Below are positions 26,929-64,000 of a stretch of 64,000 bases of DNA, piece after piece. Source of the stretch: an uncultured Gemmatimonadales bacterium (GTDB taxonomy: Bacteria > Gemmatimonadota > Glassbacteria > GWA2-58-10); NCBI GenBank assembly GCA_964473155.1, contig CAYYNT010000003.1, positions 69,839-133,838 of the forward strand, given 5' to 3'. The first letter of the stretch is position 1. Each line of letters begins with the position of its first letter. A program made the position numbers and the translations under genes. The notes beneath the pieces were generated by a model, which saw nothing but the letters and a program-made list of their open reading frames with translations, did not search any database and was not told the DNA's origin.

Positions 26929-29900
26929 TCAGCGACTAAGTAAGGCTTTGCCTGTGGCCTCCACCTCCTCGGTGTTATCGAATGCCTCATTAACAGGCCT
27001 GCAGATAATCTTATATAAATATACTCCGTTTGCAACCTTTTCCTGATATTCATCCCGCCCGTCCCAGCGGACCCGGTTGAAACCCGCGGATGCTCCAAAC
27101 ATTCGAAGCTCGCGCACCGGACGTCCGGCCACGCTGAATATCCGGATCAGCACATCCGCCGGGGAACCGAGGTCGAAACATATATCTGTCTCATCGCGGA
27201 ACGGATTGGGATAGTTCAAAACGTTGGCCAGACTCAGCGAGGTTCCGGACTGGCTGACATACAGCATTATTTCTGTCCGGCTCGCATTCAGCGCATTGTC
27301 CGCCGCTCTGAACCTGAAACTGTGCAATCCCTCACTCACCGGATTCAGGCTGACTTCCAGACTGCCCTCCTGATAACTGTCCGTATTGTAGCGGAAATAC
27401 GGTGTAAGATCGGTCGAATAAGATGTTCCCGCATCCACCTCAAGGGCTACCTGATAACCGGGGCTTCCCGTGGTGTTGATCCCGCTCTCGTCTTTCAGGG
27501 CCAGGATCAGCGGACTTCCTTTTGAGATACGGTCCCCGTCGCGCAGCTCACGGCCTTTATAAAGAACGCGTATTTCAGGGCCCGCGCTGTCTGAAAGCTC
27601 AGCGTTCCGCCCTGAAACCTGCATCCTCTGGCCGGCTCCTGAAGCATCGATGCTCTCACTGGTTGAATAACCGATGAACCGTCCGCTGCCAGCGGCCAGA
27701 CTGTCCGAAACTGTCGCCGAAGAAAGGTTCAAGGGCATAATGAACGCCCCGCTGAACCGTCCTCCACTGACTGTCACCCCCCCGTCAAAAAGAACCGACC
27801 CCGCTGGAACGAATTGCACTGCCCGATCAGTTGTGACACCGTACCAGTAACACTGGTACGGGATTGTTACTTTCCTGGAATCACTAAGGAATTTAATCTG
27901 CGCCACGCCTGAAAAACCTGTCTCTATCTGTCCTCCGTTATTCAACACGCTCCCGCTGAACTCTGCCTTTCCGCCGGGTTTAAGCTGTCCGGCTCCGTCA
28001 AGGCTGATACTCATACGGCCTGCCGGTGAATGCAGCAGAAGGGCCGGGTCGCCGAACACCGTGTACTGAGCCGAATTGCTGTACTCGGCGCTTCCCATTC
28101 CCAGGCGGGCCTGAAGCGCCGCCTCACCCAGTGTAACCGCCTCCGTGCCGAACAGTTTCTGCACCAGGAGACGGTTGAGGGCCAGGTTCTGCCCGGCGTA
28201 TGTCACCCGAGTCCCTGCGTATACCGCAATCGCTCCGCCGCCGGAGGCTGTCAGCAAACGCTCTGCCATCGCATCCGTACGATAGCTGTCGAAATAGCCT
28301 ATCGAGCAGGATGAATTAAGCACGAGCGGCAACTTGTATCCGTTGGTCAATAACGGCAAATCCCGTTCCACATCGAACAAAAGCTCCTGAGACCACTGTG
28401 TCGGTCCGCCGTGTCCGATATAGTTGACAAGCAGCGCCCCGCGGTTCCACCATTCCACCAGCTCGCGCGATGCAGACGGTTTCCGCGAGCCGATTTCCGG
28501 CGGATCGAAAGGATAGCTGTCAAGGTACACTTTTTTCCGCACCAATTCCTCGGGTAAAAGCGAATCGATCGATTCGCTGCCCGCGACATGGCCGGAGACG
28601 TCATCGCATGCGCCGCCGGATACATAACCGTCATCCGCGGACAGGATTACGCGACGCACCCAGTCGCCTCGCTCACCGCCCTGTTCGTAACGCGCGACCT
28701 TGTCCGCCACAACCGACGCATCAGCCGCTTTCTGCACCGGGATGCGGCCCAGAGAAATCTGAGGCAGACCGCCGCTTTCGAACCTGACGAACCATTCATC
28801 GTAGGCGACATCTCCGCTGCTGATATATGGGATGATATGATTCGGCCTCGCACGGCCCTCCCCGGTCCAGCCCCTGAAATCATTGTGCCCGTCGCCGAAC
28901 AGCACGGCGAATCGCGGCCGCACGGGCCAGGCATCGAAAGCGTAATGAAGGAAATTCCTGACTGCGGCCGGATCTTTCTGCCCCAGGCCGAATTCATCGT
29001 AAATATCTTCAACAGTGACTACCTGCGTGGAAAAACGCGCCGCGCGCGAAGCCGCAAGCGAACCTGCCTGCGTGGAAAGGGCGCGCGGCGTGATGACCAC
29101 ATATTCAGCGCCGGACATACGTCGCAGGCCGGGAGGATCAAAAAGAGCTATAGAGGCCGGGGCAGCGTAAGCCGAATCAGTCAGCACCACAAAAGAGCGT
29201 AACGGACTGGCGGAGGATGGCAGCGAAAACCTCACCCCGGCGCTGTTCCGTTCGAGGCCTGTCAACAGGACAGGATTCCCGGGGCGGGTGATGTCATAGA
29301 CCTCGGTTTCCCGCGGCTGCGCCTCGGAAATCTGATACACGGACTGACCTTCCGGCCTGACATGATACTCCACTTGGCCTTTGCCATCCATCACGAGAGC
29401 GGTGTTCATGCGCAATTCCACGAATCCCGTGATCCAGTTCAATCCTGAAAGGATAAACCGGTTGCCGCCCTCTATCAAGCAGTTCTCCGGAAGGTTAAGC
29501 CAGTCAGTTGTGAAAATTCTGGCGTCAAATGTGTTGCCGAATCCCAGTTGCATACCGTTAAGGTTTGCATTCCAGTAAACGCTTGCATAACGGGCCTTCC
29601 CGTAAAACTGGCAGCGCAGTTTATTGCCGTTTGAAAGCGGGACGGCCGGGACATTCAGCGTGCGTTCGCGAATGTCCGGACTGTCCCCCGTTTCCACCCA
29701 GGCCCAGAAATCCGGCGACAGATTAAATTTGGACTCCTCACCCTGGAGATCGCTTAAATAGATGTTGTTGCGTTCGAAATGGAACCAGCGCTCTCCGGAT
29801 GTCACTGCCGGCGCTGCGGCGTCAGGGATCGCCGCAATCTCTTGCATGCGCAAACCGGAAGCGCCCGGGTCTCCCCAGGACAGCCAGTAAACAGCCCGGT

Positions 29901-30960
29901 TGTCATAGCGATGGACCAGGCTGCTCACCGCTCCGGTGTCATCCACGCTGAACCGGTCAAGCCCCTGGCCGTAGAAAATCACGCGGTCTCCCTGACCAAA
30001 AGAACCATCGGCCACTCCAGTCACCCGTATCGCCACCTCATGAAGATCCGGCATATCGGCTGACGGGTCTTCGTCCTGCATTTTCCCGCCGCTGAAATAG
30101 AGGCGAAGGCTGGAGGGAGCGATTCCGGAAATTTCTACGCCCGAGGCCAGAAGAGCGGCCCCGCTGATTGAATAAACACCGGAGGAATCGATTCGAACCG
30201 CGGCCCAGTGCGGCGCGCGGTCGAAAGGCGATGCGGAGGATGCTGCAAGACGGGTGCGCGGAGTAAGCCAGGCCCCGGCGCTCCGCCAGTTCAGAAAAGC
30301 CCCCCTGACAAAAGGGTCCGCAAGGCCATCGGGGCGATCGGATGGGCTGTTCGATTCCGCTGAAAGCTGACCGCTGAAAGAGATATCGATATCCATACGG
30401 CGGCGGATCGTGAGCCTGCCGTTTGACGGGTCATAACTGAAGGGATAGACCGTAAGCTGAAGAACTCTGTATTCGCGGAACTGGAAAGGACCGGACAGAA
30501 CGAGCGGTTCTTCCGGGTGTTCCCCACCCTGAAGATATTCCTGCCCAAAAGCCGGAAGGGAAAGCGATTCCCGGCTTTCATTCTCATCTCCCGGCGGGGC
30601 AAGGGCCGGAAAAAGCGCGCCGGTTCTTGCAAAAGTCCTGTCCTCTCCGGATATGGAACCTCTTGCCGCACAACCGGGAGGGACAACCAGCGCCACGCTG
30701 TAACACGGCATGGAGGGATAGCCCGGACGGCTGATCACCTCGGCCCCATCCGCCTCAATCCTCGTGTAGTCTGCGCCGCGCCATGAGAAAGGTTCGAGCG
30801 ACCATGCGGGAAGCTCGAATGTCAGACGCACGCCATCCTGTCCGGAGGACAGCAGGGAAAACGGTTGCTCCCCGGCTCTCAGCACAACCGGAAATGAGGC
30901 GAGGACCATGATCAATGCAGCCCCGAGGGCTGCCAACAGTTTAATCCGTCCGGCTCTCAA
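26929..30960 (-). CDS. peptidase C25 (gingipain/PorU-like) protein with a T9SS C-terminal sorting domain; candidate T9SS C-terminal signal peptidase
   Basis: Catalytic-domain start YVVITPRAL...VEDIYDEFG...AVRNFLHYA...FAVLFGDG. Clan CD His/Cys dyad in NYIGHGGPTQW and LNSSCSIGYFD. CTD: NVLNYPNPFRDETDICFDL...VLIRIFSVAGRPV...WDGRD...GVYLYKI. Confidence 0.7.
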   Translation of the reverse strand: MRAGRIKLLAALGAALIMVLASFPVVLRAGEQPFSLLSSGQDGVRLTFELPAWSLEPFSWRGADYTRIEADGAEVISRPGYPSMPCYSVALVVPPGCAARGSISGEDRTFARTGALFPALAPPGDENESRESLSLPAFGQEYLQGGEHPEEPLVLSGPFQFREYRVLQLTVYPFSYDPSNGRLTIRRRMDIDISFSGQLSAESNSPSDRPDGLADPFVRGAFLNWRSAGAWLTPRTRLAASSASPFDRAPHWAAVRIDSSGVYSISGAALLASGVEISGIAPSSLRLYFSGGKMQDEDPSADMPDLHEVAIRVTGVADGSFGQGDRVIFYGQGLDRFSVDDTGAVSSLVHRYDNRAVYWLSWGDPGASGLRMQEIAAIPDAAAPAVTSGERWFHFERNNIYLSDLQGEESKFNLSPDFWAWVETGDSPDIRERTLNVPAVPLSNGNKLRCQFYGKARYASVYWNANLNGMQLGFGNTFDARIFTTDWLNLPENCLIEGGNRFILSGLNWITGFVELRMNTALVMDGKGQVEYHVRPEGQSVYQISEAQPRETEVYDITRPGNPVLLTGLERNSAGVRFSLPSSASPLRSFVVLTDSAYAAPASIALFDPPGLRRMSGAEYVVITPRALSTQAGSLAASRAARFSTQVVTVEDIYDEFGLGQKDPAAVRNFLHYAFDAWPVRPRFAVLFGDGHNDFRGWTGEGRARPNHIIPYISSGDVAYDEWFVRFESGGLPQISLGRIPVQKAADASVVADKVARYEQGGERGDWVRRVILSADDGYVSGGACDDVSGHVAGSESIDSLLPEELVRKKVYLDSYPFDPPEIGSRKPSASRELVEWWNRGALLVNYIGHGGPTQWSQELLFDVERDLPLLTNGYKLPLVLNSSCSIGYFDSYRTDAMAERLLTASGGGAIAVYAGTRVTYAGQNLALNRLLVQKLFGTEAVTLGEAALQARLGMGSAEYSNSAQYTVFGDPALLLHSPAGRMSISLDGAGQLKPGGKAEFSGSVLNNGGQIETGFSGVAQIKFLSDSRKVTIPYQCYWYGVTTDRAVQFVPAGSVLFDGGVTVSGGRFSGAFIMPLNLSSATVSDSLAAGSGRFIGYSTSESIDASGAGQRMQVSGRNAELSDSAGPEIRVLYKGRELRDGDRISKGSPLILALKDESGINTTGSPGYQVALEVDAGTSYSTDLTPYFRYNTDSYQEGSLEVSLNPVSEGLHSFRFRAADNALNASRTEIMLYVSQSGTSLSLANVLNYPNPFRDETDICFDLGSPADVLIRIFSVAGRPVRELRMFGASAGFNRVRWDGRDEYQEKVANGVYLYKIICRPVNEAFDNTEEVEATGKALLSR

Positions 30961-32235: not shown

Positions 32236-32312
<77 letters not shown>

Positions 32313-52237: not shown

Positions 52238-53434
52238 TCAGGATTTCTCCCAGTCAGGACATATCTCAGCATGCCTTCTGGCAATAGAGGCCGCCAGCAT
52301 ATCCAGCGAAACGAAATCCTTTTCTGTCGGCTTACCGCGGGTCATAACGGTCTCAAGCATCTCGACTTTCATGCCCTTTAGCATGGACTGAAGCTGCTCC
52401 TCCATCTTCACTCCCCAGCCGTACGAGCCGTACATCGAAACAAAGCGCGCCTTTGGACGCAGCGCGTTTGTAAGGTACGCGGCATAAACCACTTTCGGGT
52501 GCATGCCGTTGAGGATATTCGGTGAACCGAAAACCACCGTTGCGGCATCCACCAGAGCCATGGACAGACGTCCCATGTCGGTCTCGGCCAGGTTAAAAAA
52601 CTCGACCCGGACGCCGCGGGAAACGAGCGACTCTATGAAATACCCGGTCATCTGTTTGGTGCTGCCGTGCATCGAGACATACGGAATGACCACCAGGTTT
52701 TTGGGTGTTTCACCAGCCCAGTCGCGGTAAGCGTCGAGGATAAAATCCGGCTCGCGGTGAAGCGGGCCATGGCTGGGGGCGATCAGACTGATTTTCAGAT
52801 CGCCGATCTTCTCCATGTTGCGGCGGACCGGACCGGAAAACGGCATCATTACCTCTGCGTAGTAACGCCTGGCGGAATCAAGCAAACGCCCCTTGTCCAT
52901 CACATACAGATCGTTTGTCGCCATATGCGACCCGAAAAGGTCACATGAGAAAAGTATCCCGTCCTCACGCAGATATGTGAACATGGTTTCCGGCCAGTGC
53001 ACCCAGGGAGCGTGAATGAACTCCAGGGTCCTTCCACCCAGGTCCAGGGTCTGCCCGTCCTCCACTGTTTCAATCCGCTCCGCATCCAGTGTCAACAGGT
53101 CAAGCAGCATGCTGCGGCCTTTTGGAGTGGCCAGGACTTTAGCACCAGGGAAGCGATCGAGAGCATCCGGCAGGGAGCCAGAATGGTCCTGTTCGGCATG
53201 GTTAGAGACGATATAATCGATTTTTTTCACTCCCGCGTTCTCGATGCGGGCAAAAAGAACCGTCTTGAACTCGGGTTCCACGGTATCTATAAGAACAGTC
53301 TTTTCCCTGCCCTGCACGAGGTATGAATTGTAACTCGTGCCATCCGGCAAAGGAGTTATTTCCTCGAAAAGCCTACGGTCCGGATCGATTACTCCGACCC
53401 AGTGCACGCCTTCTGTAATCCTGCGAGCCTGCAT
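52238..53434 (-). CDS. flavodiiron protein (FprA-type: metallo-beta-lactamase-like diiron domain plus flavodoxin domain)
   Basis: SNHAEQDHSG (H-x-E-x-D-H) diiron motif and a C-terminal flavodoxin-like domain. Confidence 0.85.
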   Translation of the reverse strand: MQARRITEGVHWVGVIDPDRRLFEEITPLPDGTSYNSYLVQGREKTVLIDTVEPEFKTVLFARIENAGVKKIDYIVSNHAEQDHSGSLPDALDRFPGAKVLATPKGRSMLLDLLTLDAERIETVEDGQTLDLGGRTLEFIHAPWVHWPETMFTYLREDGILFSCDLFGSHMATNDLYVMDKGRLLDSARRYYAEVMMPFSGPVRRNMEKIGDLKISLIAPSHGPLHREPDFILDAYRDWAGETPKNLVVIPYVSMHGSTKQMTGYFIESLVSRGVRVEFFNLAETDMGRLSMALVDAATVVFGSPNILNGMHPKVVYAAYLTNALRPKARFVSMYGSYGWGVKMEEQLQSMLKGMKVEMLETVMTRGKPTEKDFVSLDMLAASIARRHAEICPDWEKS

Positions 53435-53573
53435 AAACCAATTCCTTATTAAATCAGGTTAATTCTGCATTTATCGGAGCACATCTCTTGCCGTGCTGAA
53501 AAAGAAAAAGTGAGAATAAATATTATTATAAATCACTGTTCGCTGCAAGCTCCATTCTGAGGCGAAACGCCTG

Positions 53574-54098
53574 TTAATGCTTTTGTGGCCTGCATTTGAT
53601 CCGGTTCATTTCCTGTTTCATCAGATCGAGGATCGCCCGCAGTTTGTTTTCATGCTCCTGCTCCTGAGCCGCAAGCATCTCGAACAGCTTGCGGGTCAAA
53701 TCGCGGCTGGAAAACGCCGCCGTGCTTGAATACAATTCTGCTGCGGCATGTTCCTTCGGTATCATCCGCATGACAATTTCAAGCACTTTCTCGACATCCC
53801 TGCATTTTTCTTCCTCGGACAAATCTTCCTCATGGATGGCCAGCGATTCCTCGCCCACGGACATTGTCTTGCCGCGCGCCTCGTTCAGCTCCTGTTGAAG
53901 GATTTCCAGCGCGGCCCTGAGCTTGGCCTCATGCTGCTCCTCCTGCTCAGCCAGCCTGGAGAACAGCACCCGGACCATCTCCGACCGGGCCTCCTGCGCC
54001 GTGGTCAGGAAAGCGTCGTGCGCCTGGCGCTCCTTGGGGATGCTGCGCACCACCACCTCGATCATGCGCTCCAGTTGTTTGACAATTTCCTTATCCAT
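53574..54098 (-). CDS. ferritin-like diiron protein built from two homologous half-bundles (rubrerythrin-like)
   Basis: Internal duplication: ...SRLAEQEEQHEAKLRAAL... and ...EMLAAQEQEHENKLRAIL..., each half carrying an E...ExxH pair. Confidence 0.55.
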   Translation of the reverse strand: MDKEIVKQLERMIEVVVRSIPKERQAHDAFLTTAQEARSEMVRVLFSRLAEQEEQHEAKLRAALEILQQELNEARGKTMSVGEESLAIHEEDLSEEEKCRDVEKVLEIVMRMIPKEHAAAELYSSTAAFSSRDLTRKLFEMLAAQEQEHENKLRAILDLMKQEMNRIKCRPQKH

Positions 54099-54111
54099 TT
54101 ATGGCTCCGGT

Positions 54112-54819
54112 TCAGGAGGGGAATGTTATCTTGCCGCCGAAATATCCGAGTCCAATCACTGTCGGGGCCAAGGCCAGGACAGCCATGGAGTACGTCCAGT
54201 ACCAGGAGCCGCTTCCGGCCATCACTGCTTCGGTCTTTGCGAAAAGAATTGCAAAAGCGGCGAGCAGCAACACTGCCAGCAGAATAGACAGATAGGTTTT
54301 CACGCGATAGATATGCGTCCAGATACCGCTGTAATTGTAGTACCAGCTCAACAGTCCCGTGGTAATGGATACCGGAGTCACGAGTGCGGCGACAATCAGG
54401 TTGTAATAAGCAGCCTCTGTCATATGGGGCAGTGGCGTAACCATACCGAGGAAAGTGAAAAGCGAAGCCGAAATACACAGGGCTATCGGAAAATGAACGG
54501 AGATCGGGTGCGGGTGCCGGTCCAGTATTTTCGACACCAGCCGCGACGGCGTTTTCAGCGCGGTCTGCATGGCCGGGGATTTTTCCCCGGGACCGATCTC
54601 GGCTACAACCGCAAACTTATCCAGCACCTCTGCGCCGTGCGGAGCGGCTTTAATGGACTCAGTCAGGTCCCTTCCGGCCTGGTGTGTCTTGAAATGCTTT
54701 CCGTTCCGCCATAACCGGCTCGTGGAGACATCATAAATTTTGCCCTCGAAAGCCACATAGGATTTTTTTCCATCAACACCATCGTGTTTCTGAAGTTCAT
54801 CCTGTTCCATGCGGTCCAT
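54112..54819 (-). CDS. cytochrome-b5-like domain fused to a DUF2231-like 4-TM membrane domain
   Basis: N-terminal KSYVAFEGKIYDVSTSRLWRNGKH...HQAGRDLTE (cyt b5/steroid-binding-like fold) followed by four TM helices. Confidence 0.45.
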   Translation of the reverse strand: MDRMEQDELQKHDGVDGKKSYVAFEGKIYDVSTSRLWRNGKHFKTHQAGRDLTESIKAAPHGAEVLDKFAVVAEIGPGEKSPAMQTALKTPSRLVSKILDRHPHPISVHFPIALCISASLFTFLGMVTPLPHMTEAAYYNLIVAALVTPVSITTGLLSWYYNYSGIWTHIYRVKTYLSILLAVLLLAAFAILFAKTEAVMAGSGSWYWTYSMAVLALAPTVIGLGYFGGKITFPS

Positions 54820-54999: not shown

Positions 55000-55090
55000 T
55001 CAATGCCAGGACCGGTTTTCGCGGATTATCAATAAGAGGCGAAACTTTGAATGAACTTAATCCTGCAAAGATTTGTTTCACGCATCAGGA

Positions 55091-55131
55091 CAAGCAAAAG
55101 CCGGGGTTCCCGGACAATCGGGAACCCCGGC
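55091..55131 (-). terminator. strong rho-independent terminator after the PorV-like gene
   Basis: GCCGGGGTTCCCG-attgtc-CGGGAACCCCGGC followed by TTTTGCTTG on the minus strand. Confidence 0.8.
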
Positions 55132-55156
55132 CTTCAGGAAATCAGACCGCAGTGCT

Positions 55157-56305
55157 CTACTGCATTTTCCAGGACAGCGTGAAAACATGGTTCTGGGTCA
55201 GACGGCCCCAGTCGCGGTAGGCGTAATCCACGGCCAAGCTGATGTCCTTGTAGATGCGGTAATCGATGCCGCCGCCTGCGCTTAAACCGCGCATCTGATC
55301 TGAACCATCCAATCCCACCTCATCACGCTCGATGCTCCAACCCCAGCGCAACGCGCCGGAGAAACGGGAACTCAGCGTGCGGGCCAGCTCGGTGCCGAAG
55401 GCGAAAGAAGTCGGCATGTAGTTATTCTCCGAGAACTGACCCGCAACAGTCCAGCGCATGTCGCTGTCGCTGTAAACATCCATGGCTATGCCGGCCATGA
55501 AACTGACCGGCAGGCTGAAACGCGAAGTGGAGTAATAGGCGTTACGGTTGTCACGGTCGAACAGCCGGTTGCCTGCCCCGTCCATCAATCGATCGCTGTA
55601 AAGCTCCTGGGGATCGGTCTGGATGAACAGGTTTTCCCCGAACAGACGGACATTGCTGCCCAGGTTTGAGATGACAAACGAAACCCGGATCGGCTTCTCG
55701 AAAAGGTTGGTGTGATAATTCGTACCCATGTCGAAAGCGATGGCATTGCCGCTCATCTGGTATATCGACTCGCGCACGCCCTTGACATTGAAACCGGCTG
55801 AAAAACGGTCACTGAAATTGAACGAGACCGTGGCCCCGTACTGCAGGCTGTAACCATCGTAGAATGCCCCGGTTCCGTCCGGCGATTCGATGGTGGTTAT
55901 TTCCTCCTCGGCGATGTTCAGAATGCCGAAAAACCCGCCCAGCACCAGACGGCCATCCAGGAAAGGCATGGCGCCGGCTGTGTAATCAAGCGAAAAATCG
56001 AGCGGCATGTCCACATGGTTGAAAAACACCTGCGGCCCCTCGATAAATGCCACTCCGGCCGGGTTCCAGTAGATCGCTGAAATGTCATCCGCCTGGGCCG
56101 CGAACGCGCCGCCCATCGCAATGCCCCTGGCGCCGACCGGCAGAGTCAGAAACTCGGCCGCGCGGTTGCCGACACTCGAAAAGTCAGCCACCCGTCCGCG
56201 CAGCGGGTTGGTGATCGATGACCCGCTGCCGGCGTACAGAGCCGCCGGTAGGACGAGGGCCGCCACCAGGCTGAGGATATAGCCTTTATTTATGTTAAAT
56301 CGCAT
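55157..56305 (-). CDS. PorV/LptO-like outer-membrane beta-barrel protein (paralog 2)
   Basis: Start taken at MRFNINK (GGAGGAG RBS). Signal peptide, then GARGIAMGGAFAAQADDISAIYWNPAGVA. About 383 aa, the size of PorV. 50 nt downstream of the 1191-aa CTD protein. Confidence 0.6.
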   Translation of the reverse strand: MRFNINKGYILSLVAALVLPAALYAGSGSSITNPLRGRVADFSSVGNRAAEFLTLPVGARGIAMGGAFAAQADDISAIYWNPAGVAFIEGPQVFFNHVDMPLDFSLDYTAGAMPFLDGRLVLGGFFGILNIAEEEITTIESPDGTGAFYDGYSLQYGATVSFNFSDRFSAGFNVKGVRESIYQMSGNAIAFDMGTNYHTNLFEKPIRVSFVISNLGSNVRLFGENLFIQTDPQELYSDRLMDGAGNRLFDRDNRNAYYSTSRFSLPVSFMAGIAMDVYSDSDMRWTVAGQFSENNYMPTSFAFGTELARTLSSRFSGALRWGWSIERDEVGLDGSDQMRGLSAGGGIDYRIYKDISLAVDYAYRDWGRLTQNHVFTLSWKMQ

Positions 56306-56355
56306 CTTCTCCTCCATCATGCTGGCAATTTACAGTCCGTACCTGCCGGACGGGC

Positions 56356-59300
56356 TCAGTGGATAATCGCGAACTTGCCCATGTGTTTCAAGCCAGTTTC
56401 ATGATCCTCAACATGGTAGATGTAGTACCCGCTGGCGATCTTCTGGTTGAAACGGGAGCGTATATTCCAGATTGCATCCCCGGTGCCGTCATTATGCTCG
56501 ATAATATCGACCAGATGGCCGGCCACCGTATAAATCCGGATTGTACAATCACCGGGCAGGTTCGTGAAATGCAGTTCCACATCGGAAGTCGTCAGGTCCA
56601 GCGGACTGGAGGCGACGTAAGGATTCGGCACTACCTTGATGCGTTTCAGGTCCCGCGCGGCGAGGTTCAGCGTGTCCGGCTTGAGCGAAACCAGCCAGCG
56701 GCTGCCCGCCACGGGCTTGCGATGCCCGTACTCAAAAGCTCCGGGGAAGCTGGAGCCGCCACGGAATGGATTCTGAGTGGCGCCCACTCCCTGACGCATC
56801 CTGATTTTCCAGACATCACCGGCCGCGGGCGGAGTGGTGATTCCGTTGATCTGGAACATGATGCCGCAGACATACAGGTCGAGGTCCTGGGTTCCGGTGA
56901 AATCAGCGACTCTATCCCCCATCTCGTCGATCACTTCTCCGGACTCGGGATCCGTGATCTCTCGTCCAGCCTCATCGAAATCAGAGGGCTTGATCGCCTG
57001 ACTCAGCTTGCTCACCAGATAGAGGTTGCGGCGGATACCGTCATCCACGGCATAGGGCTTCTTGCTCCCATCGGCCAGGGTGACTTCCTGGGCGATCAGG
57101 TCGGCGCCGGAATTCACGCTGCCGAAAAACACGTCGAACATCTCATGCGCTGTCTGGTGGTCGATCTGGATATCCAGCGCGGTCCTGTCTTTCGGTACGA
57201 ATCCCCAGCCGTCATTAGGCAACTGGTTGAAACGCACCGGGACCTTGTTGGACAGGTCGTAGACTTCCAGGGTCAGGTCGCCGCCGCCGGCGTCCACCCA
57301 TTTGACCTCGATGTCGGCAGTGCGTGTGCCGGCATAAATATGCCCTATATTGCGGGCATTGGCTAACATCGACATGGCTTCCATTTCCATGTCGCCGTAA
57401 TCGTAAGCGTACGACAGGAAGCCGTAGTTGTAGAAGAAATAATTAGTGATTTCAGTGCGCTGACGGCCATGGCGGATGTTCTCATAAGCCATGCGCCCGG
57501 CCACCTGTATCGGCTGGCAGACAAATCCGTTCCATTCATCGGCCCAGAGGGAGAAATCAATTCCCGCCACGATATTGCCGTTGACCTTGACCGGGATCGA
57601 ACCCTCAAGTTCTACACTGACGCCCCAGGGATCATATTTGCCCATGGTGCTGATCATGGTCGAGCCGATCACGCTGTGGCTGCCGTCCTCTATATGAATG
57701 TGAGCATCCCACTGCGCATCGTGATAAAATCCCATCGCGGGATCGAAATCCTCAGGTGTGTTCACCACGCTGTCAACTACGAAATACAAGTTCTTCGGCA
57801 GAAGAGACGGGTCGCCGTTGGCAATGGTTATATTGTTGATCGACAGCCCGTTTGTCGCCGCCGGCTGCACGGCTCCAGCCTCAAGCATGCCACTGGCATC
57901 CAGGTTGATCGTGCCAGCCTCGTCAATCTCCGAACCGTCAGGATAAATCTGGCTGGTACCCTGCACGCTGGCCGGAATATAACCATTGGCCGAGGTGCGT
58001 GGAATGCCCTCACGCGTATTGTTCCCGTTGTTGTCCAGCGAAATCAGTTGCAAACCCGATTCCAGGGATTCCTGGCCGGTGTTGGTCGGCTGGTAGTCGA
58101 AAGCCGTGACCGAATAATAGTAGCGGACTCCATTGAATAACCCGGTCCGGTTGCTCAGGCCCTGGCCCTGATCCACGAAAAGGTATTTCAGGCCGGTGTC
58201 CTTGACATCGTCATCGCCCTTGAAACCGGCATCGAACGGATCGAATGTGGTGCTCGGAAAATCCGGGACCCCGTCACCATTGACATCCGCACCCTGCTGT
58301 GTGACATAAGACGCTGAAGACGTTGTGACTCCATCGGCTTTGTCGAACTGCGCCACCAGGACCGCATTCTTGGAATCCGAGGTCAGGGAACGGTAGACCC
58401 TGTAGCCCTGGAAATCATACTGCAGGTAATCCGGGTTGTAGGTAGCCGCCGGTGTGCCGTCCGGGTTGGTCGGAATCTGGCTGACTGGATAGAAAGGATC
58501 GGGAGTTCTTTCAGCGATGTCATCCCAGGTCACCACTATAGAACCGTCGCGCTCGATCAGCCGCATGTTCGGGCTGACCGGCGGAGCGGGCAGGTTGAAA
58601 TTCGTGTCGAAGGTGTTCTGCACGGTCTGGGCCAGACCGATCAGAGGCTTCAGCTCGCCCTCGAACGTAATGTCATCTACGTTTGGCGGGTTGCGCAGAG
58701 GCTCGGAAAGGAAATAAGCTACTTCAACCTTCTGGAATTTCCCGTCCGCCGGGAGATCGAACGGCCCGGTGAGCAGACGGGCGCGAAGGTCATCCTGGAA
58801 ATCCGAGATAATCAGGTCCGCATTCGGGTCCCACTGCGGCTCGGTCACCTCGCCCGGAGCATTGATCATGATCCGGTACGCCTCGGCGTCGGTGTTCGGG
58901 TCCTCACGCGGGCCGCCGCGGTTGGTGGTGATGGTGAATCCGGTCAGGCCGATACGGTTGGCCTCGCCTTCCTCATCCACCGAGCCGTTGCCGTCGTTGT
59001 CGATTCCGTCTGGCGGACGGCCTACCTGGGTTGGGCTGTCCAGGAATTTGATACTGAAAAAGCCAACCGGATTGGTAAAATTGGCTTCCGAAAAATCACT
59101 GTCCCAGTAGATCGACATGTTGAACTTGGGTGAAACGCCGGCTCGGTCATCAGTCGCCTCGCCGATGTCGAAATCGGTGTTGACGCCTGCGAGCATGTCC
59201 TTGATGAGGTAAGGCCCGGCAACATCCACCGAACCGTCGCCGTTGACATCCTCGTTGACATACTCGGTGGCGTTCCTGAAACGCCATTCGACATACATGA

Positions 59301-59931
59301 TATCTTTCTGCGAGGTCACCGAGAACAGCTTGACCCGCTGGAAAGTCTCCACTCCAAGACGGTAAGCTCCGGCCGCGGGATTGACCGGCCCGCCGATATC
59401 AGTGTAGAAAGTGACTATATCCTGCTGTCCGTACACCTTTGGCTCGCCGTTTTCATCGCAGAATTCGGCCGGCCATGCCGCCAGGTCGGCCGCCACAGTG
59501 CTGGAATACAGACGGTTGGCGGGATCATCCTGGCTGTTCGAGGCTCTACCCTCACGCCATTCCTCATCATATACTGCTTCTGTTTCCACCGTGTCCTGGA
59601 ATATGCCGTCACCGTCGGAATCAAAAATGCCGGCCACGTGCAGACCTGACTGAAACACGTACTGATCCGTACGGGCACGCCAGAATCCGCCGCCTGTCGT
59701 GGAACTGCCTCCGGGATCCTTGCCCAGATTGCCCCGGTTGTCCAATCCGAAAATGATACTATTTGTAGTCGTAAACATCCGGCTGATGACGGATAAATCC
59801 GTATCGCCCGAACGTTTGGCCTTACCGGTGTCACCCGGCTTCCTTGCGCCGGCCATCTGCGGCAGCGCCAGAGACAGAACGACCGTCGCGAGGGCGATCG
59901 TTCTGAGGATTCTGCTGAAACCTTTCTGCAT
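56356..59931 (-). CDS. large secreted protein (1191 aa) with a T9SS C-terminal sorting domain; function unknown
   Basis: Signal peptide. Asp-rich Ca-binding-like DGIDNDGNGSVDEEGE. C-terminus KVVPNPY...CTIRIYTVAGHLV...ASGYYIYHV...GKFAIIH matches the T9SS CTD. Confidence 0.7.
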   Translation of the reverse strand: MQKGFSRILRTIALATVVLSLALPQMAGARKPGDTGKAKRSGDTDLSVISRMFTTTNSIIFGLDNRGNLGKDPGGSSTTGGGFWRARTDQYVFQSGLHVAGIFDSDGDGIFQDTVETEAVYDEEWREGRASNSQDDPANRLYSSTVAADLAAWPAEFCDENGEPKVYGQQDIVTFYTDIGGPVNPAAGAYRLGVETFQRVKLFSVTSQKDIMYVEWRFRNATEYVNEDVNGDGSVDVAGPYLIKDMLAGVNTDFDIGEATDDRAGVSPKFNMSIYWDSDFSEANFTNPVGFFSIKFLDSPTQVGRPPDGIDNDGNGSVDEEGEANRIGLTGFTITTNRGGPREDPNTDAEAYRIMINAPGEVTEPQWDPNADLIISDFQDDLRARLLTGPFDLPADGKFQKVEVAYFLSEPLRNPPNVDDITFEGELKPLIGLAQTVQNTFDTNFNLPAPPVSPNMRLIERDGSIVVTWDDIAERTPDPFYPVSQIPTNPDGTPAATYNPDYLQYDFQGYRVYRSLTSDSKNAVLVAQFDKADGVTTSSASYVTQQGADVNGDGVPDFPSTTFDPFDAGFKGDDDVKDTGLKYLFVDQGQGLSNRTGLFNGVRYYYSVTAFDYQPTNTGQESLESGLQLISLDNNGNNTREGIPRTSANGYIPASVQGTSQIYPDGSEIDEAGTINLDASGMLEAGAVQPAATNGLSINNITIANGDPSLLPKNLYFVVDSVVNTPEDFDPAMGFYHDAQWDAHIHIEDGSHSVIGSTMISTMGKYDPWGVSVELEGSIPVKVNGNIVAGIDFSLWADEWNGFVCQPIQVAGRMAYENIRHGRQRTEITNYFFYNYGFLSYAYDYGDMEMEAMSMLANARNIGHIYAGTRTADIEVKWVDAGGGDLTLEVYDLSNKVPVRFNQLPNDGWGFVPKDRTALDIQIDHQTAHEMFDVFFGSVNSGADLIAQEVTLADGSKKPYAVDDGIRRNLYLVSKLSQAIKPSDFDEAGREITDPESGEVIDEMGDRVADFTGTQDLDLYVCGIMFQINGITTPPAAGDVWKIRMRQGVGATQNPFRGGSSFPGAFEYGHRKPVAGSRWLVSLKPDTLNLAARDLKRIKVVPNPYVASSPLDLTTSDVELHFTNLPGDCTIRIYTVAGHLVDIIEHNDGTGDAIWNIRSRFNQKIASGYYIYHVEDHETGLKHMGKFAIIH

Positions 59932-60034
59932 TGAGTTCTCCTTTGGCTGATCCTGATCTCTAATTCAGGTTTATGCCATCAGCAACCTGGCAGCCCGGGA
60001 ACGGTCGTCGCCGTCACCGGGAGAATCTCGATTA

Positions 60035-63000
60035 TTAGAAGTTATACTCGATTCCCAGACGGACCTCACGCGGATTGAGCCAGAAAAGCGGATCCATGTC
60101 CTGGGCGCGCCCCTTGGCATACGAAGCCGCCGCGGCCTCAGACTTGGTAACGTATCCATCCTTGTTTATATCGCGGATCATCTGGGCTTCGTTCGTTACA
60201 GTTACAGCCTGCGAGCTGGGGAGGAGTTCTCCCAGGAAATACTTGTCCACACCCACCTGACCCGTGGTCGGGTCAATGCCCTGTTGACCGTAATTCACGC
60301 TTTCGAACAGGTTCATGATCGTCGCAAACAACGTGATACGGTCCTTACCCAGATTGAAAGACTTGTTCAACCGCAGGTCGGCGCAGAAATAACCCGGCAT
60401 GCGGGCGCTGTTCGCCGTGGTGATGAAGTTGCCCTGTTCGTCCACGGGAGTGTAGGGTGCGCCTGAATTGTAGGTCACGTCAAAATAGGCGCCGAAATCT
60501 CGCAGGACTTTGCCCAGTGTCGTGCCTTTCTGGAAATCATCCGGGAACAGCACGTTGAACATGACATTGACCTGATGGGTGCGGTCATTGTCTGTCGGCG
60601 CCGGGTCTGACGGAGGCGGCGGGCTCTGGTTGGTGAACGGGTCGAGCTGACGGGCCAGGGTGCGAACATACTCCTGCGGATCGCTCTGGGTCGAACGGGC
60701 GAACATAAGTGAGTATGTGGTGCGCAACCCGAAATACCTGGAATAACGTTTGTCCAGGGTCAGGTCGAAGCCGCGCACGTTCCCGTTATCCTGGTTCGAG
60801 GCGACCTGAAGGTTGCCCTGACCGCGTATGACATAATTAGGATCAACCAGCGCCAGACGGCGAAGATCATCGGCCGTGGCCAGGCGCAAGCCGAAATTGC
60901 CGCGAATTTCACGGTTGTAACCCACGAAATCAAGGACCATGTCCTCAGTCAGAAGCGTGGTGAAACCGGCCTCGAACTGAATGGTCTGTCCCATGTCCAG
61001 CCAGCCGTTGCCGAAATTCTGGTTCGGGTTGGACAGCGCATCGGTGGCAAAGTCGCGCTCGACCATCGCATACATCAGTTCGAACGGCGGGGTCTGATAG
61101 AAATGCCCGTAAGACAGACGCACCTGGGTGCGATCCGTGATCGGATGAGCCACTCCGATTCGCGGGCTGAAATGGCCGACCGGTTCGGGAACCTCGGTGA
61201 CATCGTTGAAATCAGGATTGTTCTGGCCGACGATTATCGGGAACGCCTTGTTCACGTTAAAACGGTCATAACGCACGCCCACGTCGATGACCAGGTCTCC
61301 GAAATCCAGACGGTCCTGGGCATAGACGCCCAGAAGGCGCGGTTTGGCCCTGTACTGATCATCCGTGAATTCACCGTAGTAGAAACGGGTGACCTCAGTC
61401 ACATCCCACCAGTAGTTCTCGAACCCGATCTTTACACGGTTATAACGGTCAAGCTGGCTGTCCATGTCGAGCTTCAGGCCGAGACGTTTTTCCGTGTCAT
61501 TGCGTAATGGCAGGGACATTCCGTTGTTGACGAACTGTCGCGGGTACATGCGGTCACCGCGCTCGCCCTTGCGGCTGGGAGTCGTGGCGCCGAAAATATT
61601 GCTCGCCGTAACCTGGTCGGTCGGCCAGTGGTAGGTGCGGTCGAGGTCGGCATGCGTGGCATCCGGCTCGATAGGGTCGTTGGCAAACCCGTCGGACGAT
61701 ATAGCCGAATACAGCATGTAGCGGTTGAGTTCATCCTCGTTGTAGAAACCTATGCTGCTGCCCACGCCCATGAACGTGTTCCGGTCGACAAACTCCTGCA
61801 GCAGAAGGCCGCCATCCAAGTCGTTTTTGAAATAAGACAACCGCAACTGGCTGTTGATCGAGCGGTTGCTGTCGCGGAAGAAAGTCCAGTCCAGCCCTGC
61901 CATTCCCATTTCAGTTGTCAGACGCTGGGCCTGGTTGTTGCGGTACGAGTTGTTGAACAGATAGGAATGATCGTAGTATTGACGCTGGTCACGGCTGCGA
62001 TGGTAAACTCCGATGAATTTCATCCAGTCAGTGGCCGTGTAGGTGGATTTAAAGGACGTCGTGTAAAGGTCCTTCCAGTTGCCGGGCAGTCTCACCGGGT
62101 TGCTGTTGGAATACGGACCGGAGTACAACGGATTCTTTACTGCCACTCCCCTGGCGAACGCAGAAGCGATGGCGTCCGGAGAAGTCGTGGCCTTGCCGTC
62201 CTCATCGAATGTCCACAGGTTGCCGGTAGTCGGATCGATCTGTATGATCGGCTGAGCCCCGGACCTGAGCGTTCCATCGGAGGTTACATCCGCCGGATCG
62301 GCGATAACCTGAGGCTGGGTCAGAAGACGGAACGCCAGACCGTCTTCGCGGCTGAATCCGCGGGTATAGGTCCCATCCTCATTTACCACTCCGTAACCGA
62401 GGTCCGGAGACTTGGTGACTCTGCTATACTCGGCAAAAGAGTTGACTGTCAGAGGGTCAGTTGCATCGTCTCTGTCCGCCACTCCATCGCTGACAACTCC
62501 GATAGAACCGAGGTCGCGGTTCAAGGAATTGATGAAACTCTGGGTCACCCCGCGGAATCCACCCTTGTCTCCGCTGAGGCGCGGGGTGGCATCCGCCATG
62601 CCGCGCATCATCCCGGAAACGAAGAAATTCAGCTTGTCACCGTACAACGGTCCGCCGATACTGCCTTCCAGATTGTTGTATCCATAATCCATCGTGCGCG
62701 GATTGGCCTGATCGGTGATATAGCGCAGGCTCCCCATTATCTGGGTCCCGCCTTCCTTGGTAACGATATTGATCATGCCGGACTGGGCGTTGCCGTATTC
62801 GGCCTGGAAGCCTCCGGTGATCAGGTTCACTTCCTCGATCGCGTCTCCCGAAACAACCAGGGGGTTGATGACGCCGCCGGCATCCGTGTCGACTCCGCCG
62901 CGATCCTCCGTGCCCTGCTGTTCGTTCTGGGCCTTGACCAGCACTCCGTCAACGTACATCGCCTCCTCACCCTCGCGTCCGCCGCGCAGTGAGAAATTGC

Positions 63001-63496
63001 CTGAATAGTCAACCACCACGCCGGCCTGGAGGTTCATTACATCCTCGATCTGCGTGGCCGGCATTCTATCCAGATCCTCGGCCCTGAGATTCTGACGGGT
63101 CTGGACATTGTCGCGCGCGACCAGTGGATCGCTCTCGCCCTCGATAACGATCGCTTCCAGACCGATCACCTGGGAGGAAAGCTCCGCGTTCACAGTAATG
63201 GTGTTGCCAGCCGGAACGCGGACATCCACCACTTCCACCGGTTTGTAACCGGTGAATGTGAATTTAACTGAGCGATTGCCCACCGGAACGTTCAGAATAA
63301 AATAGTAACCGTCCTGGTTCGTCACATTACCAAGGCGTGTCCCCATAACGGTCACCTGCACGCCGGGCATGGCGTTGCCTGTGTCCTTGTCCCTGACCAC
63401 GCCCTCCAGCTTGCCCGTAGTCTGTGCAAAAGACTGCGCGGCAAAAAACATCAGGGTCAGGCTTGTCAGCAAAAGCAGCTTACATAGTTTGTGCAT
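60035..63496 (-). CDS. TonB-dependent outer-membrane receptor with an N-terminal carboxypeptidase-regulatory-like domain
   Basis: Signal peptide; CarbopepD_reg-like GKLEGVVRDKDTGNAMPGVQV; plug domain; long barrel ending ...RLGIEYNF. Confidence 0.85.
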   Translation of the reverse strand: MHKLCKLLLLTSLTLMFFAAQSFAQTTGKLEGVVRDKDTGNAMPGVQVTVMGTRLGNVTNQDGYYFILNVPVGNRSVKFTFTGYKPVEVVDVRVPAGNTITVNAELSSQVIGLEAIVIEGESDPLVARDNVQTRQNLRAEDLDRMPATQIEDVMNLQAGVVVDYSGNFSLRGGREGEEAMYVDGVLVKAQNEQQGTEDRGGVDTDAGGVINPLVVSGDAIEEVNLITGGFQAEYGNAQSGMINIVTKEGGTQIMGSLRYITDQANPRTMDYGYNNLEGSIGGPLYGDKLNFFVSGMMRGMADATPRLSGDKGGFRGVTQSFINSLNRDLGSIGVVSDGVADRDDATDPLTVNSFAEYSRVTKSPDLGYGVVNEDGTYTRGFSREDGLAFRLLTQPQVIADPADVTSDGTLRSGAQPIIQIDPTTGNLWTFDEDGKATTSPDAIASAFARGVAVKNPLYSGPYSNSNPVRLPGNWKDLYTTSFKSTYTATDWMKFIGVYHRSRDQRQYYDHSYLFNNSYRNNQAQRLTTEMGMAGLDWTFFRDSNRSINSQLRLSYFKNDLDGGLLLQEFVDRNTFMGVGSSIGFYNEDELNRYMLYSAISSDGFANDPIEPDATHADLDRTYHWPTDQVTASNIFGATTPSRKGERGDRMYPRQFVNNGMSLPLRNDTEKRLGLKLDMDSQLDRYNRVKIGFENYWWDVTEVTRFYYGEFTDDQYRAKPRLLGVYAQDRLDFGDLVIDVGVRYDRFNVNKAFPIIVGQNNPDFNDVTEVPEPVGHFSPRIGVAHPITDRTQVRLSYGHFYQTPPFELMYAMVERDFATDALSNPNQNFGNGWLDMGQTIQFEAGFTTLLTEDMVLDFVGYNREIRGNFGLRLATADDLRRLALVDPNYVIRGQGNLQVASNQDNGNVRGFDLTLDKRYSRYFGLRTTYSLMFARSTQSDPQEYVRTLARQLDPFTNQSPPPPSDPAPTDNDRTHQVNVMFNVLFPDDFQKGTTLGKVLRDFGAYFDVTYNSGAPYTPVDEQGNFITTANSARMPGYFCADLRLNKSFNLGKDRITLFATIMNLFESVNYGQQGIDPTTGQVGVDKYFLGELLPSSQAVTVTNEAQMIRDINKDGYVTKSEAAAASYAKGRAQDMDPLFWLNPREVRLGIEYNF

Positions 63497-63630
63497 AGAA
63501 CTCTCCTGTCGTTAAAGTAAGAGTGCTCTACTCGATGAAAAACCGAGTTCACAACGATGTTATTTCATCCTCCCTCCTCTCCTAAGTGTATCTAAAATAA
63601 CGGATTGAATGGACGGCGATTATAAATTTT

Positions 63631-63661
63631 ATTATAACATCCGCGTAGTGTAACCTGTCAA
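63631..63661 (-). promoter_or_regulatory. candidate sigma70 promoter of the TBDR operon within an ATAAAT-rich region
   Basis: Minus strand TTGACA, 18-19 nt, TATAAT. The surrounding region has tandem ATAAAT-like repeats. Confidence 0.3.
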
Positions 63662-64000
63662 GATATAAATCAATATAAATTATAAATCCGCGTCGAACTC
63701 AGGACATTCTCATGAAAATGATATCAGAATGCCAAAATTCAGAGGGTTTTCAGGACTTAAGAATGGTTTTTCGGGCTGGATTTGAATACAGGGGGGAATT
63801 AAGATTTATTTTGTTTCTGCCTTTGAAAAATCGCCCAAACAAGTCTCTTCCCATCGCGATCCCCTGGGCTGACTATCAAGAGCGGTTTAAGTTGACATTT
63901 AAGTCCTACATAAAAATTAAATTGTTCGATTTTCAAACAAAAGTCAAGCTGATTTTTCAGCCGTCTTTTTGCGTGCTCTTCTCAAGAATCTCCCAGGCGT

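Follow-up and report, generated by a model that had tools for sequence, protein, structure and literature searches.

A three-gene operon on the minus strand of a 64,000-nucleotide stretch of Glassbacteria DNA (the window) encodes a TonB-dependent receptor, a large middle protein (MID) with a T9SS-like C-terminal domain (CTD) and a barrel of the PorV/PorQ family. The question raised by this locus is what an import receptor, a putative T9SS cargo and a second PorV-like barrel do together in one operon.

The genes run 5' to 3' in the order receptor, MID and barrel, in a compact arrangement closed by a terminator (Table 1). The preliminary description had listed three co-oriented genes with short gaps of 103 and 50 nt and a strong terminator at the operon end. 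All three open reading frames are present, and the receptor and MID are separated by 103 nt. The gap between MID and the barrel is 50 nt if translation of the barrel begins at its third ATG (56305), as in public gene calls (382 aa), and 35 nt if it begins at the first (56320). Only the third ATG is preceded by a ribosome-binding site (GGAGGAG), none being found before the other ATGs; an AAGGAG site lies 8 nt 5' of the MID start codon, and AGGAGA precedes the receptor ATG (63496). The terminator hairpin lies directly 5' of CUUUUGCUU, and the 82-nt fold has a stability of -42 kcal/mol (z = -5.55), which was equalled by none of 200 shuffled sequences. Upstream, an AT-rich stretch of approximately 500 nt separates a terminator-like site (63962-63947) from the receptor ATG. 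Sigma-70-like matches occur here at 63735-63706 and 63654-63626, and direct reading shows TTGACA (63661-63656) and TATAAT (63636-63631) separated by 19 nt. As the host lineage may use another promoter type, these sites are assigned with low confidence. A search for a riboswitch or other RNA 5' of the receptor gene found none, and reading of the same region by eye gave no convincing sigma-54 promoter.

Table 1. Features of the operon and of the porU-linked pair, in window coordinates.
Feature	Coordinates	Strand	Remarks
TonB-dependent receptor gene	60035-63496	minus	1153 aa
MID gene	56356-59931	minus	1191 aa
MID N-terminal domain, ~residues 48-420	58672-59790	minus	galactose-mutarotase-like supersandwich (predicted)
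MID FN3-like conserved module, residues 421-650	57982-58671	minus	found in 78/82 triplet family members
MID lineage-variable beta-sandwich region, residues 651-1090	56662-57981	minus	found in 16-17/82 family members
MID CTD, residues 1091-1191	56359-56661	minus	distinct T9SS-like CTD subclass
PorV/PorQ-family barrel gene	55157-56305	minus	382 aa from RBS-preceded ATG; 387 aa from 56320
Intrinsic terminator	55086-55136	minus	18-bp G+C-rich hairpin (~55095-55136), then U-tract
5' intergenic region	63497-63760	minus	promoter-like sites and receptor RBS; sequence matches, low confidence
porU, outside operon	26929-30960	minus	NF033707 572 bits; Peptidase_C25 257 bits
porV-like barrel gene, outside operon, 3' of porU	25875-26879	minus	NF033709 115.7 bits

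By its Plug (PF07715, residues 128-240, 28.9 bits against a cutoff of 23.9) and TonB_dep_Rec_b-barrel (PF00593, residues 546-1063, 75.8 bits against 27) domains, both above gathering score, the first protein is a TonB-dependent receptor. Its signal peptide ends in ...SFAQ and is followed by a CarbopepD_reg_2 domain (residues 31-118, 65 bits). Among 67 aligned receptors from related loci, a TonB-box-like block (v.v.aer), RGGR, AEYG.AmSG and a terminal F are kept; in a sequence-level test for the TonB box, LEAIVIEGE of the window receptor aligned with the v.v.aer block. The alignment also revealed a lineage-specific insertion at approximately residues 306-470. The SusC/RagA model TIGR04056 scored 35.8 bits against a cutoff of 368, over the N-terminal 127 residues only. 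Judged by these matches, the receptor is SusC-like in layout and outside the SusC/RagA family.

MID begins with a Sec signal peptide (...LPQMAGA) that contains neither a Cys nor a lipobox. No enzymatic domain had been recognizable in it on first inspection, and this was borne out: Pfam at E ≤ 0.1 returned no family match, SusD-like models included, and neither Pfam and NCBIfam nor a fold search revealed a catalytic domain. An AF2 model (mean pLDDT 72) is nearly all beta and multidomain, with no beta-propellers predicted, and MID would thus be an all-beta multidomain protein, probably exposed at the cell surface. In structural superposition, its N-terminal domain matched several members of the galactose mutarotase-like supersandwich family with high Z, and it carries a conserved acidic cluster (TDFDIG.A.DDR). 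The model suggests a fold of the carbohydrate-enzyme type in a non-catalytic form; it is seen, too, in proteins that do not act on carbohydrates, YidC P1 and copper amine oxidase among them. The FN3-like module that follows has the consensus PP..P...L....DG.V..TWDD ... DFQGYRVYRS ... YYYAVTA.DY. All carriers of the next, variable region belong to the Glassbacteria-type clade, and this region is a candidate for the determinant of specificity. A search with a profile of the MID family yields 21260 cluster representatives when the threshold is set at E ≤ 1e-3 and 2604 when it is E ≤ 1e-30, and all the homologs are named 'hypothetical protein' in public records.

The tail of MID had been described as a clear T9SS C-terminal sorting domain. 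To standard models it is not clear: the type A model TIGR04183 reached 15.9 bits, below its cutoff of 23, and PF18962 of Pfam gave nothing. The CTD can be recognized only through profile matches and the motifs KVVPNPY ... F.NLP..CTIRIY..G.LV ... ASGYYIYHV ... GKFAII. Because it scores below the curated type A cutoffs, we infer, rather than assign, T9SS dependence of MID. The family profile matches only two structures in the PDB, both of them CTDs, namely those of PorU (6za2 residues 1028-1141, E 2.6e-6) and PorZ (5m11 residues 656-758, E 1.8e-5). Similarly, NCBIfam returned matches of the tail to PorZ and PorU models, that to PorZ (NF052228) reaching 23.1 bits against a cutoff of 260 and covering the tail only; the type B model TIGR04131 gave no match in NCBIfam at E ≤ 0.1. 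Relatives show sub-threshold CHU_C and Por_Secre_tail matches. In a CTD model, MID tails scored 67-142 bits, compared with -2 to 52 for the generic tails of neighbouring cargo proteins, and on this sequence measure the two classes separate cleanly. Within the triplet, conservation is highest in the CTD, with 47% mean pairwise identity, a uniformity that is inflated because most of the approximately 80 related loci were retrieved through the VVPNPY motif. A homolog, P0013, is 45% identical to MID over 1086 residues but ends in a canonical type A tail, and its gene has no barrel or receptor gene as a neighbour. Cys1129 of the CTD is conserved in 59 of 67 sequences. An intermolecular disulfide through this residue was considered and rejected, as no conserved Cys was found in the receptor or the barrel (the operon barrel contains no Cys at all) and no partner could be found.

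The third protein had been taken for a second PorV-like paralog with the same N-terminal motif as the barrel encoded 3' of porU. The two barrels do have the motif GAR.I.MG...WNPAG.A in common and are 24% identical, and both exceed the cutoff (90) of the curated PorV/PorQ family profile NF033709, the operon barrel with a full-length match of 140.8 bits (model positions 2-326 of 326). NCBI names a member of its cluster 'PorV/PorQ family protein', and the PorP_SprF Pfam model gave no match at E ≤ 0.1. The operon barrel failed both equivalogs, with 60.7 bits against 220 for PorQ (NF033711) and 31.6 against 250 for PorV (NF033710); by these scores it is nearer to PorQ than to PorV and belongs to neither. 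Ten positionally equivalent barrels, taken from as many lineages, scored 159-217 bits with NF033709 and 88-122 bits with the PorQ equivalog, which thus failed in 11 of 11 barrels tested. The porU-linked barrel, encoded where porV is typically found, scored higher with PorV (52.9 bits) than with PorQ (33.7 bits). The presence of porU and this barrel indicates that T9SS parts are present in the genome, as is a second pair consisting of a CTD protein followed by a PorV-family barrel; PorU and MID are the only CTD-bearing proteins within the window.

A set of 81 related loci, drawn from about a dozen phyla of the FCB group, served to examine whether the triplet is conserved as a unit. The receptor gene lies upstream in 66 of 68 testable loci and the barrel gene downstream in 75 of 78, with median gaps of 14 nt (receptor-MID) and 11.5 nt (MID-barrel), so that the neighbourhood is kept across these phyla. 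Sources include Glassbacteria, WOR-3, Zixibacteria, Ignavibacteria, Calditrichota, KSB1, Marinimicrobia, Fidelibacterota, Cloacimonadota, Latescibacterota, Edwardsbacteria and Gemmatimonadota MAGs. Of six loci that were picked up through homology of the protein and not through the CTD pattern, five contained the triplet. Exceptions include two loci (L010 and L077) that carry the special CTD without an adjacent barrel and one (L052) with two MID-barrel pairs and no receptor. This recurrence is far beyond chance, and the triplet is among the commonest outer-membrane gene triplets of non-Bacteroidota FCB genomes. The preliminary description had called the arrangement non-standard for T9SS; this stands in so far as a full-text literature search, with most subscription papers outside its scope, found no description of the triplet, but any rarity is refuted by its recurrence across FCB phyla. 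At least 10 MAGs contain two or more divergent copies, which fits substrate-specific uptake loci and not core machinery.

In other phyla, the triplet sits in nutrient-utilization loci. In one, a GH13 amylase and a Reg_prop/Y_Y_Y sensor kinase precede the triplet and a CBM20/48 T9SS cargo follows it; elsewhere, CBM48/CBM20 cargo and C11 peptidase cargo, a sugar kinase, an aldolase and LamG cargo, or parts of a peptide ABC transporter are found nearby. Sigma-54 two-component regulators lie beside Glassbacteria paralogs. The flanks of the operon within the window offer no substrate clue, the downstream genes being of the redox-stress type and the upstream sequence ending at the window edge. For the Glassbacteria-type copy, a glycan is the favoured guess, prompted by the modelled fold of the N-terminal domain.

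The reading favoured here, with moderate confidence, is that the operon specifies a three-part outer-membrane nutrient-uptake device, a T9SS-built counterpart of SusC/SusD in which MID is tethered by its CTD to a dedicated PorQ-like barrel. The receptor is, at the level of its domains, a TonB-energized importer with a SusC-like N-terminal domain. MID would be exported by Sec and would then cross the outer membrane through T9SS by means of its CTD; the homology of this CTD to those of PorU and PorZ, its type-A-like motifs and the presence of porU and porV in the window point in this direction. The general route from PorV to PorU would cleave the CTD, whereas the special CTD of MID may instead go to the adjacent PorQ-like barrel and stay on it uncleaved, as that of PorZ on PorQ and that of PorU on PorV, both of which are retained and bound to a 14-strand FadL-like barrel (PMC10202324). 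An uncleaved CTD would make the barrel a permanent membrane anchor. Tethering of this kind is suggested by the strict gene linkage, the distinct CTD subclass and the generic-CTD homolog that lacks both neighbours. At the cell surface, the supersandwich, FN3-like and variable domains may capture a polymeric substrate and pass it to the adjacent receptor, a role consistent with the order and close coupling of the genes and with the nutrient loci in which other phyla carry them. Both the physical complex and the retention of the CTD are features that we infer from the genes. The proposal of the preliminary description, a surface-exposed nutrient-capture or adhesion module whose cargo is handed to a private PorV paralog, is supported in its nutrient-capture form by the nutrient loci, the supersandwich, the CTD subclass and P0013, and its mechanism would be as outlined.

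Several features of the triplet recall SusC/SusD (RagA/RagB): a large TonB receptor with an N-terminal carboxypeptidase-regulatory-like domain, a gene for a large surface partner (here of predicted surface location) directly 3' of it, several divergent copies per genome, and, in other phyla, glycan- or peptide-degrading enzymes and sensor regulators nearby. However, the receptor fails the SusC/RagA model, and SusD is an alpha-helical TPR-like lipoprotein, whereas MID, all-beta by prediction, carries a Sec signal and a T9SS-like tail and lacks a lipobox. The triplet further has an obligatory third gene, that of the PorV/PorQ-family barrel. A comparable trio in Melioribacter was labelled 'SusC, SusD, SusE' in a 2013 genome paper (PMC3534657), its identity with the triplet being putative. 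Mros0759-0761 of Melioribacter roseus is a candidate for the same triplet.

An unlikely, though the best surviving, alternative is that the genes form a loose cluster without a complex: MID would be an ordinary T9SS cargo (an adhesin, a binding protein or an unrecognized enzyme) that is released or attached elsewhere, the barrel only its extraction shuttle, and the receptor an importer of products that touches neither protein. For type B CTDs with PorP/SprF-like barrels, as in Flavobacterium johnsoniae, it is well established that a cognate shuttle barrel is encoded directly downstream of its cargo, the CTD subclass setting both barrel and destination (PMC12618676), and generic-tail T9SS cargo is present in the same loci as the triplet. 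A crude co-divergence (mirror-tree) test singled out no link between CTD and barrel, with a weak partial correlation of 0.17 compared with 0.35 between CTD and receptor; it was uninformative, all three proteins co-diverging. The type B systems serve adhesins and gliding and have no receptor gene, and the CTD of MID, of approximately 100 aa, is type-A-like, with no TIGR04131 match to MID and no PorP_SprF match to the barrel. The fixed gene order and the median receptor-MID gap, a coupling closer than that of the enzymes in these loci, which vary, argue against a loose cluster; so do the resemblance of the CTD to two known retained CTDs and the lack of a catalytic domain in the searches described above.

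A role in envelope biogenesis or structure, in which a FadL-like barrel would be the platform and MID the dome or coat assembled on it at the surface, is considered improbable. In the Bacteroidota BAM complex (BamG-BamH), a large extracellular protein docks on a FadL-family barrel that stands next to a larger one (PMC12578637). A gene for a SurA-like double-parvulin chaperone abuts the triplet in 14 loci, and one Ignavibacteria ortholog group is highly conserved (60-95% identity in more than 1000 proteins). However, BamG-BamH has a lipoprotein as the partner and BamA as the big barrel, whereas the large barrel here is a plug-containing TonB-dependent receptor; the BamG model misses the operon barrel and gives its paralog 25 bits. 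Multiple variable paralogs in contexts resembling inducible catabolism (sensor kinases, amylase, CBM cargo) also argue against this role.

Less probable again is that MID and the barrel are the lineage's equivalent of PorZ/PorQ, working in the T9SS attachment complex alongside PorU/PorV, the linkage of the receptor gene having another cause. The likeness to PorZ-PorQ and PorU-PorV of Porphyromonas gingivalis lies in the CTD, which matches only these two tails in the PDB, in the shared NCBIfam family of the barrels, and in the porU-porV pair in the same window. The differences are that MID has neither a C25 peptidase nor a beta-propeller body, and that the triplet fails the PorZ, PorQ and PorV equivalogs, is multi-copy, varies in its middle region, and is coupled to a receptor in nutrient-utilization contexts. 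PorZ/PorQ orthology was rejected on these grounds. Least probable of all is that the barrel, independently of the MID CTD, lets a hydrophobic or amphipathic compound pass as a FadL-type channel would: FadL-like barrels are the ancestors of the PorV family, and weak Toluene_X/FadL and UPF0164 matches were found, but the FadL match (21 bits; cutoff 29.7) spans no more than 50 residues, the PorV/PorQ match is full-length and well above cutoff, and the barrel gene is nearly always directly 3' of that of the special-CTD protein.

Polysaccharide-utilization loci are found and counted through SusC/SusD pairs, and phyla that lack SusD therefore look poor in such systems. If the triplet is a SusCD equivalent, thousands of 'hypothetical protein' genes would gain a role, and the three-gene signature would map nutrient-uptake loci in uncultured FCB lineages. 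The idea can be tested directly in carriers that are in culture, among them Melioribacter, Ignavibacterium and Caldithrix, for which the starch-type locus gives an obvious inducing substrate. The 'cognate shuttle barrel' rule would come to cover a new CTD class in addition to type B adhesins, and T9SS would be directly involved in building import machinery. A broader and more tentative proposal, to which less than even probability is attached, is that of a phylum-spanning, SusD-independent class of TonB uptake systems whose T9SS partner carries a third class of CTD, never cleaved and docked on a PorQ-like barrel. If so, a complex of three-barrel scale would play the SusCD role in Ignavibacteria, Calditrichota, Gemmatimonadota/Glassbacteria, WOR-3, Zixibacteria, Marinimicrobia and their relatives, and T9SS and TonB-dependent import, so far studied apart, would be linked.

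The three minus-strand open reading frames of receptor, middle protein and barrel lie where the preliminary description had placed them, and the 103-nt gap between receptor and middle genes was likewise recovered. The 50-nt gap described between middle and barrel genes holds because the barrel start is the third ATG (56305), the only one with a ribosome-binding site (GGAGGAG) ahead of it and also the start in public gene calls (382 aa). The middle gene has an AAGGAG ribosome-binding site 8 nt 5' of its ATG. At the 3' end, the proposed terminator was confirmed as a G+C-rich hairpin of 18 bp that runs into a U-tract (-42 kcal/mol, z -5.55), and none of 200 shuffled sequences folded as well. The receptor gene is separated from a terminator-like site belonging to the gene before it by a long AT-rich spacer that contains promoter-like hexamers; no riboswitch was found there. 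As read from the sequence, all three products carry Sec-type signal peptides and lack a lipobox, and are predicted to be outer-membrane or secreted proteins.

Features of the window
Feature	Position	Strand	Remarks
TonB-dependent receptor ORF	60035-63496	minus	1153 aa
Middle protein ORF	56356-59931	minus	1191 aa
Calcium-binding-like loop of middle protein	58963-59010 (residues 308-323)	minus	
Barrel ORF	55157-56320 (from first ATG)	minus	387 aa
Redox-stress cluster	52238-54819	minus	just 3' of operon terminator
tRNA gene	32240-32312	minus	
porU	26929-30960	minus	572 bits, Peptidase_C25
porV-like barrel	25875-26879	minus	adjoins porU
DUF5683-like ORF	24862-25785	minus	after porU and porV-like barrel
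TPR plus GWxTD-domain protein	22100-24430	minus	after porU and porV-like barrel
tmRNA gene	19722-20076	minus	190.7 bits
1207-aa ORF	13644-17267	minus	no family match but weak, sub-threshold DUF4175

The triplet is conserved as a unit in related genomes. A genome scan gave at least 80 loci; the analysed set (n = 81, those 80 plus L001) came from Glassbacteria, WOR-3, Zixibacteria, Ignavibacteria/Melioribacter, Calditrichota, KSB1, Marinimicrobia, Fidelibacterota, Cloacimonadota, Latescibacterota, Edwardsbacteria and Gemmatimonadota, some loci being from MAGs labelled Bacteroidota. A homologous receptor was encoded in 66 of the 68 loci with room upstream and a homologous barrel in 75 of the 78 with room downstream, co-stranded in all such loci and with median gaps of 14 nt (receptor-middle) and 11.5 nt (middle-barrel). 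Because most loci had been recovered by means of the CTD motif, the check was extended to six relatives detected by protein homology instead; the triplet was present in five and absent in one. Among the best 80 loci alone, at least 10 MAGs contain two divergent triplets each. An exception is locus L052 (1741-9373), with two tandem pairs of middle protein and barrel, no receptor gene, and then two ordinary T9SS cargo genes; the pair might work without a dedicated receptor. One MAG (DATKXY01, deposited as 'archaeon isolate SMAG_U14205') holds two bacterial triplets (L003 and L006), one of them 70% identical to that of the window, and this bin is either contaminated or wrongly labelled. GTDB places Glassbacteria inside Gemmatimonadota (PMC11316326), with which several labels reading 'uncultured Gemmatimonadales' agree.

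The middle protein contains no Pfam domain, and a whole-PDB search with its family profile returned only two entries, the CTDs of PorU (6za2) and PorZ (5m11). Its family is very large and unnamed: a profile run against 1.84 billion representatives retrieved 21260 sequences at E<=1e-3 and 2604 at E<=1e-30, and every named homologue is a 'hypothetical protein'. The CTD is present in 82 of 82 family members, the FN3-like module (residues 421-650) in 78 and the N-domain (residues ~48-420), assigned from its model to the galactose-mutarotase-like supersandwich fold, in at least 50; residues 651-1090 are lineage-specific. A D-x-D-x-D-G-x-x-D-E calcium-binding-like loop (DGIDNDGNGSVDEEGE, low pLDDT) occurs once in the middle protein and in five or more copies in Ignavibacteria orthologues (alignment A4/A5).

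The T9SS CTD had been called clear. Its likeness to the PorU and PorZ CTDs stands by profile, but not its clarity, as curated matches were weak and confined to the last 100 residues (PorZ and PorU tails), with the type A sorting domain sub-threshold. A model built from tails of triplet middle proteins scored such tails at 67-142 bits (median 123) and neighbouring ordinary T9SS cargo tails at -2 to 52, a separation subject to retrieval bias through the VVPNPY motif; the window's PorU tail scored 34 bits. No other part of the triplet is as well conserved as the CTD, whose mean pairwise identity is 47% (barrel, 36%; receptor, 32%). P0013, a homologue 45% identical to the middle protein over the first 1086 residues, ends in a type A tail of textbook form (…NLPNPFNPSTTI…IYNLRGQLV…SGIYFYRM…KMVMLK) and, in this single case, has neither barrel nor receptor alongside; the special tail also occurs at two loci (L010 and L077) that lack a barrel next to it. 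Cys1129 (56545-56547, CTD motif 'CTIRIY') is the sole conserved cysteine of the whole triplet (59 of 67), with none in receptor or barrel and no disulfide partner or other role apparent.

The triplet barrel is assigned to the PorV/PorQ family by a full-length match to NCBIfam NF033709 (140.8 bits, cutoff 90), in keeping with the preliminary description, and falls below both equivalogs (PorQ, 60.7 against 220; PorV, 31.6 against 250). Barrels of ten lineages (n = 10) all matched NF033709 at 159-217 bits, PorQ usually being the second-best model and always sub-threshold. The barrel directly 3' of the bona fide porU is a paralogue (24% identity) sharing the N-terminal motif, as claimed; the window therefore holds a general PorU-PorV pair plus an extra triplet barrel. 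Only the middle protein and PorU carry CTDs in the window, each followed by its own PorV-family barrel. At an unrelated locus, L085 (9314-10846), a GWxTD protein lies directly 3' of a triplet-type barrel, and GWxTD proteins may recurrently accompany PorV-family barrels.

The receptor, assigned by its domains (N-terminal carboxypeptidase-regulatory-like, plug and TonB-dependent barrel), retains a TonB-box-like stretch and the usual plug motifs. Its layout resembles that of SusC, although its SusC/RagA score is below cutoff (35.8 bits against 368). Glassbacteria-type receptors bear a ~165-residue insertion after the plug (about 62087-62581 in the window, residues ~306-470), probably forming an additional domain, either extracellular or close to the plug; receptors of other phyla are without it.

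Of the window's own flanks, the downstream one is uninformative and the upstream one is truncated. The redox-stress cluster encodes a cytochrome b5-DUF2231 membrane protein, a double rubrerythrin-like protein and a flavodiiron (ODP/flavodoxin) protein, with NifU, cysteine desulfurase, Fpg and AhpC beyond it on the source contig. In other phyla, the surroundings look like polysaccharide- or protein-utilisation loci. Locus L083 runs GH13 amylase, Reg_prop/Y_Y_Y sensor kinase and regulator, SurA-like chaperone, receptor, middle protein, barrel and a CBM20/CBM48 protein with a T9SS tail. Other loci contain CBM48/CBM20 or C11-peptidase cargo, oligopeptide ABC transporter parts or, in a Melioribacter MAG, a sugar kinase, an aldolase, LamG cargo and a GHL10-like protein; Glassbacteria paralogues are adjoined by sigma-54 two-component regulators. 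Gene order around the Melioribacter trio labelled 'SusC, SusD, SusE' (PMC3534657) agrees with L083, which suggests that the Sus names of this candidate trio were assigned by position. In 14 loci, mostly of Ignavibacteria and Fidelibacterota, the triplet has as its immediate neighbour a gene for a SurA-like chaperone with two parvulin domains, which often overlaps or abuts the receptor gene (e.g. L044 1940-3598, L066 2146-3846, L083 5594-7297).

Pairing of a TonB-dependent receptor with a partner on the surface is already known, and so is T9SS cargo that has a cognate barrel. No description of the receptor/partner/barrel combination, the CTD subclass or the Pfam-dark partner family was found in the searchable literature; an earlier one is less likely than not but a real possibility. 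We infer that the T9SS would export the middle protein via its tail, and that the adjacent PorQ-like barrel would capture this tail and keep the CTD uncleaved. Holding of PorZ on PorQ and of PorU on PorV provides the model for such retention (PMC10202324), by analogy with which the middle protein may be retained; the cognate-shuttle rule established for PorP/SprF barrels and their type B cargo (PMC12618676) may likewise apply to the triplet barrel. A looser arrangement, with the barrel as shuttle only and no complex with the receptor, is a doubtful but reasonable alternative. A role in envelope biogenesis or as a coat, for which BamG/BamH offer the analogy (PMC12578637), appears improbable, and a PorZ/PorQ-type attachment component marginally more so. 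A FadL-type channel is the least probable reading of all. We favour the whole mechanism of export, retention and substrate capture with modest confidence, T9SS export and barrel pairing with more, and a stable complex with the receptor or a glycan substrate with less. In this mechanism the tethered middle protein would catch substrate for the neighbouring TonB-dependent receptor, much as SusD does for SusC.
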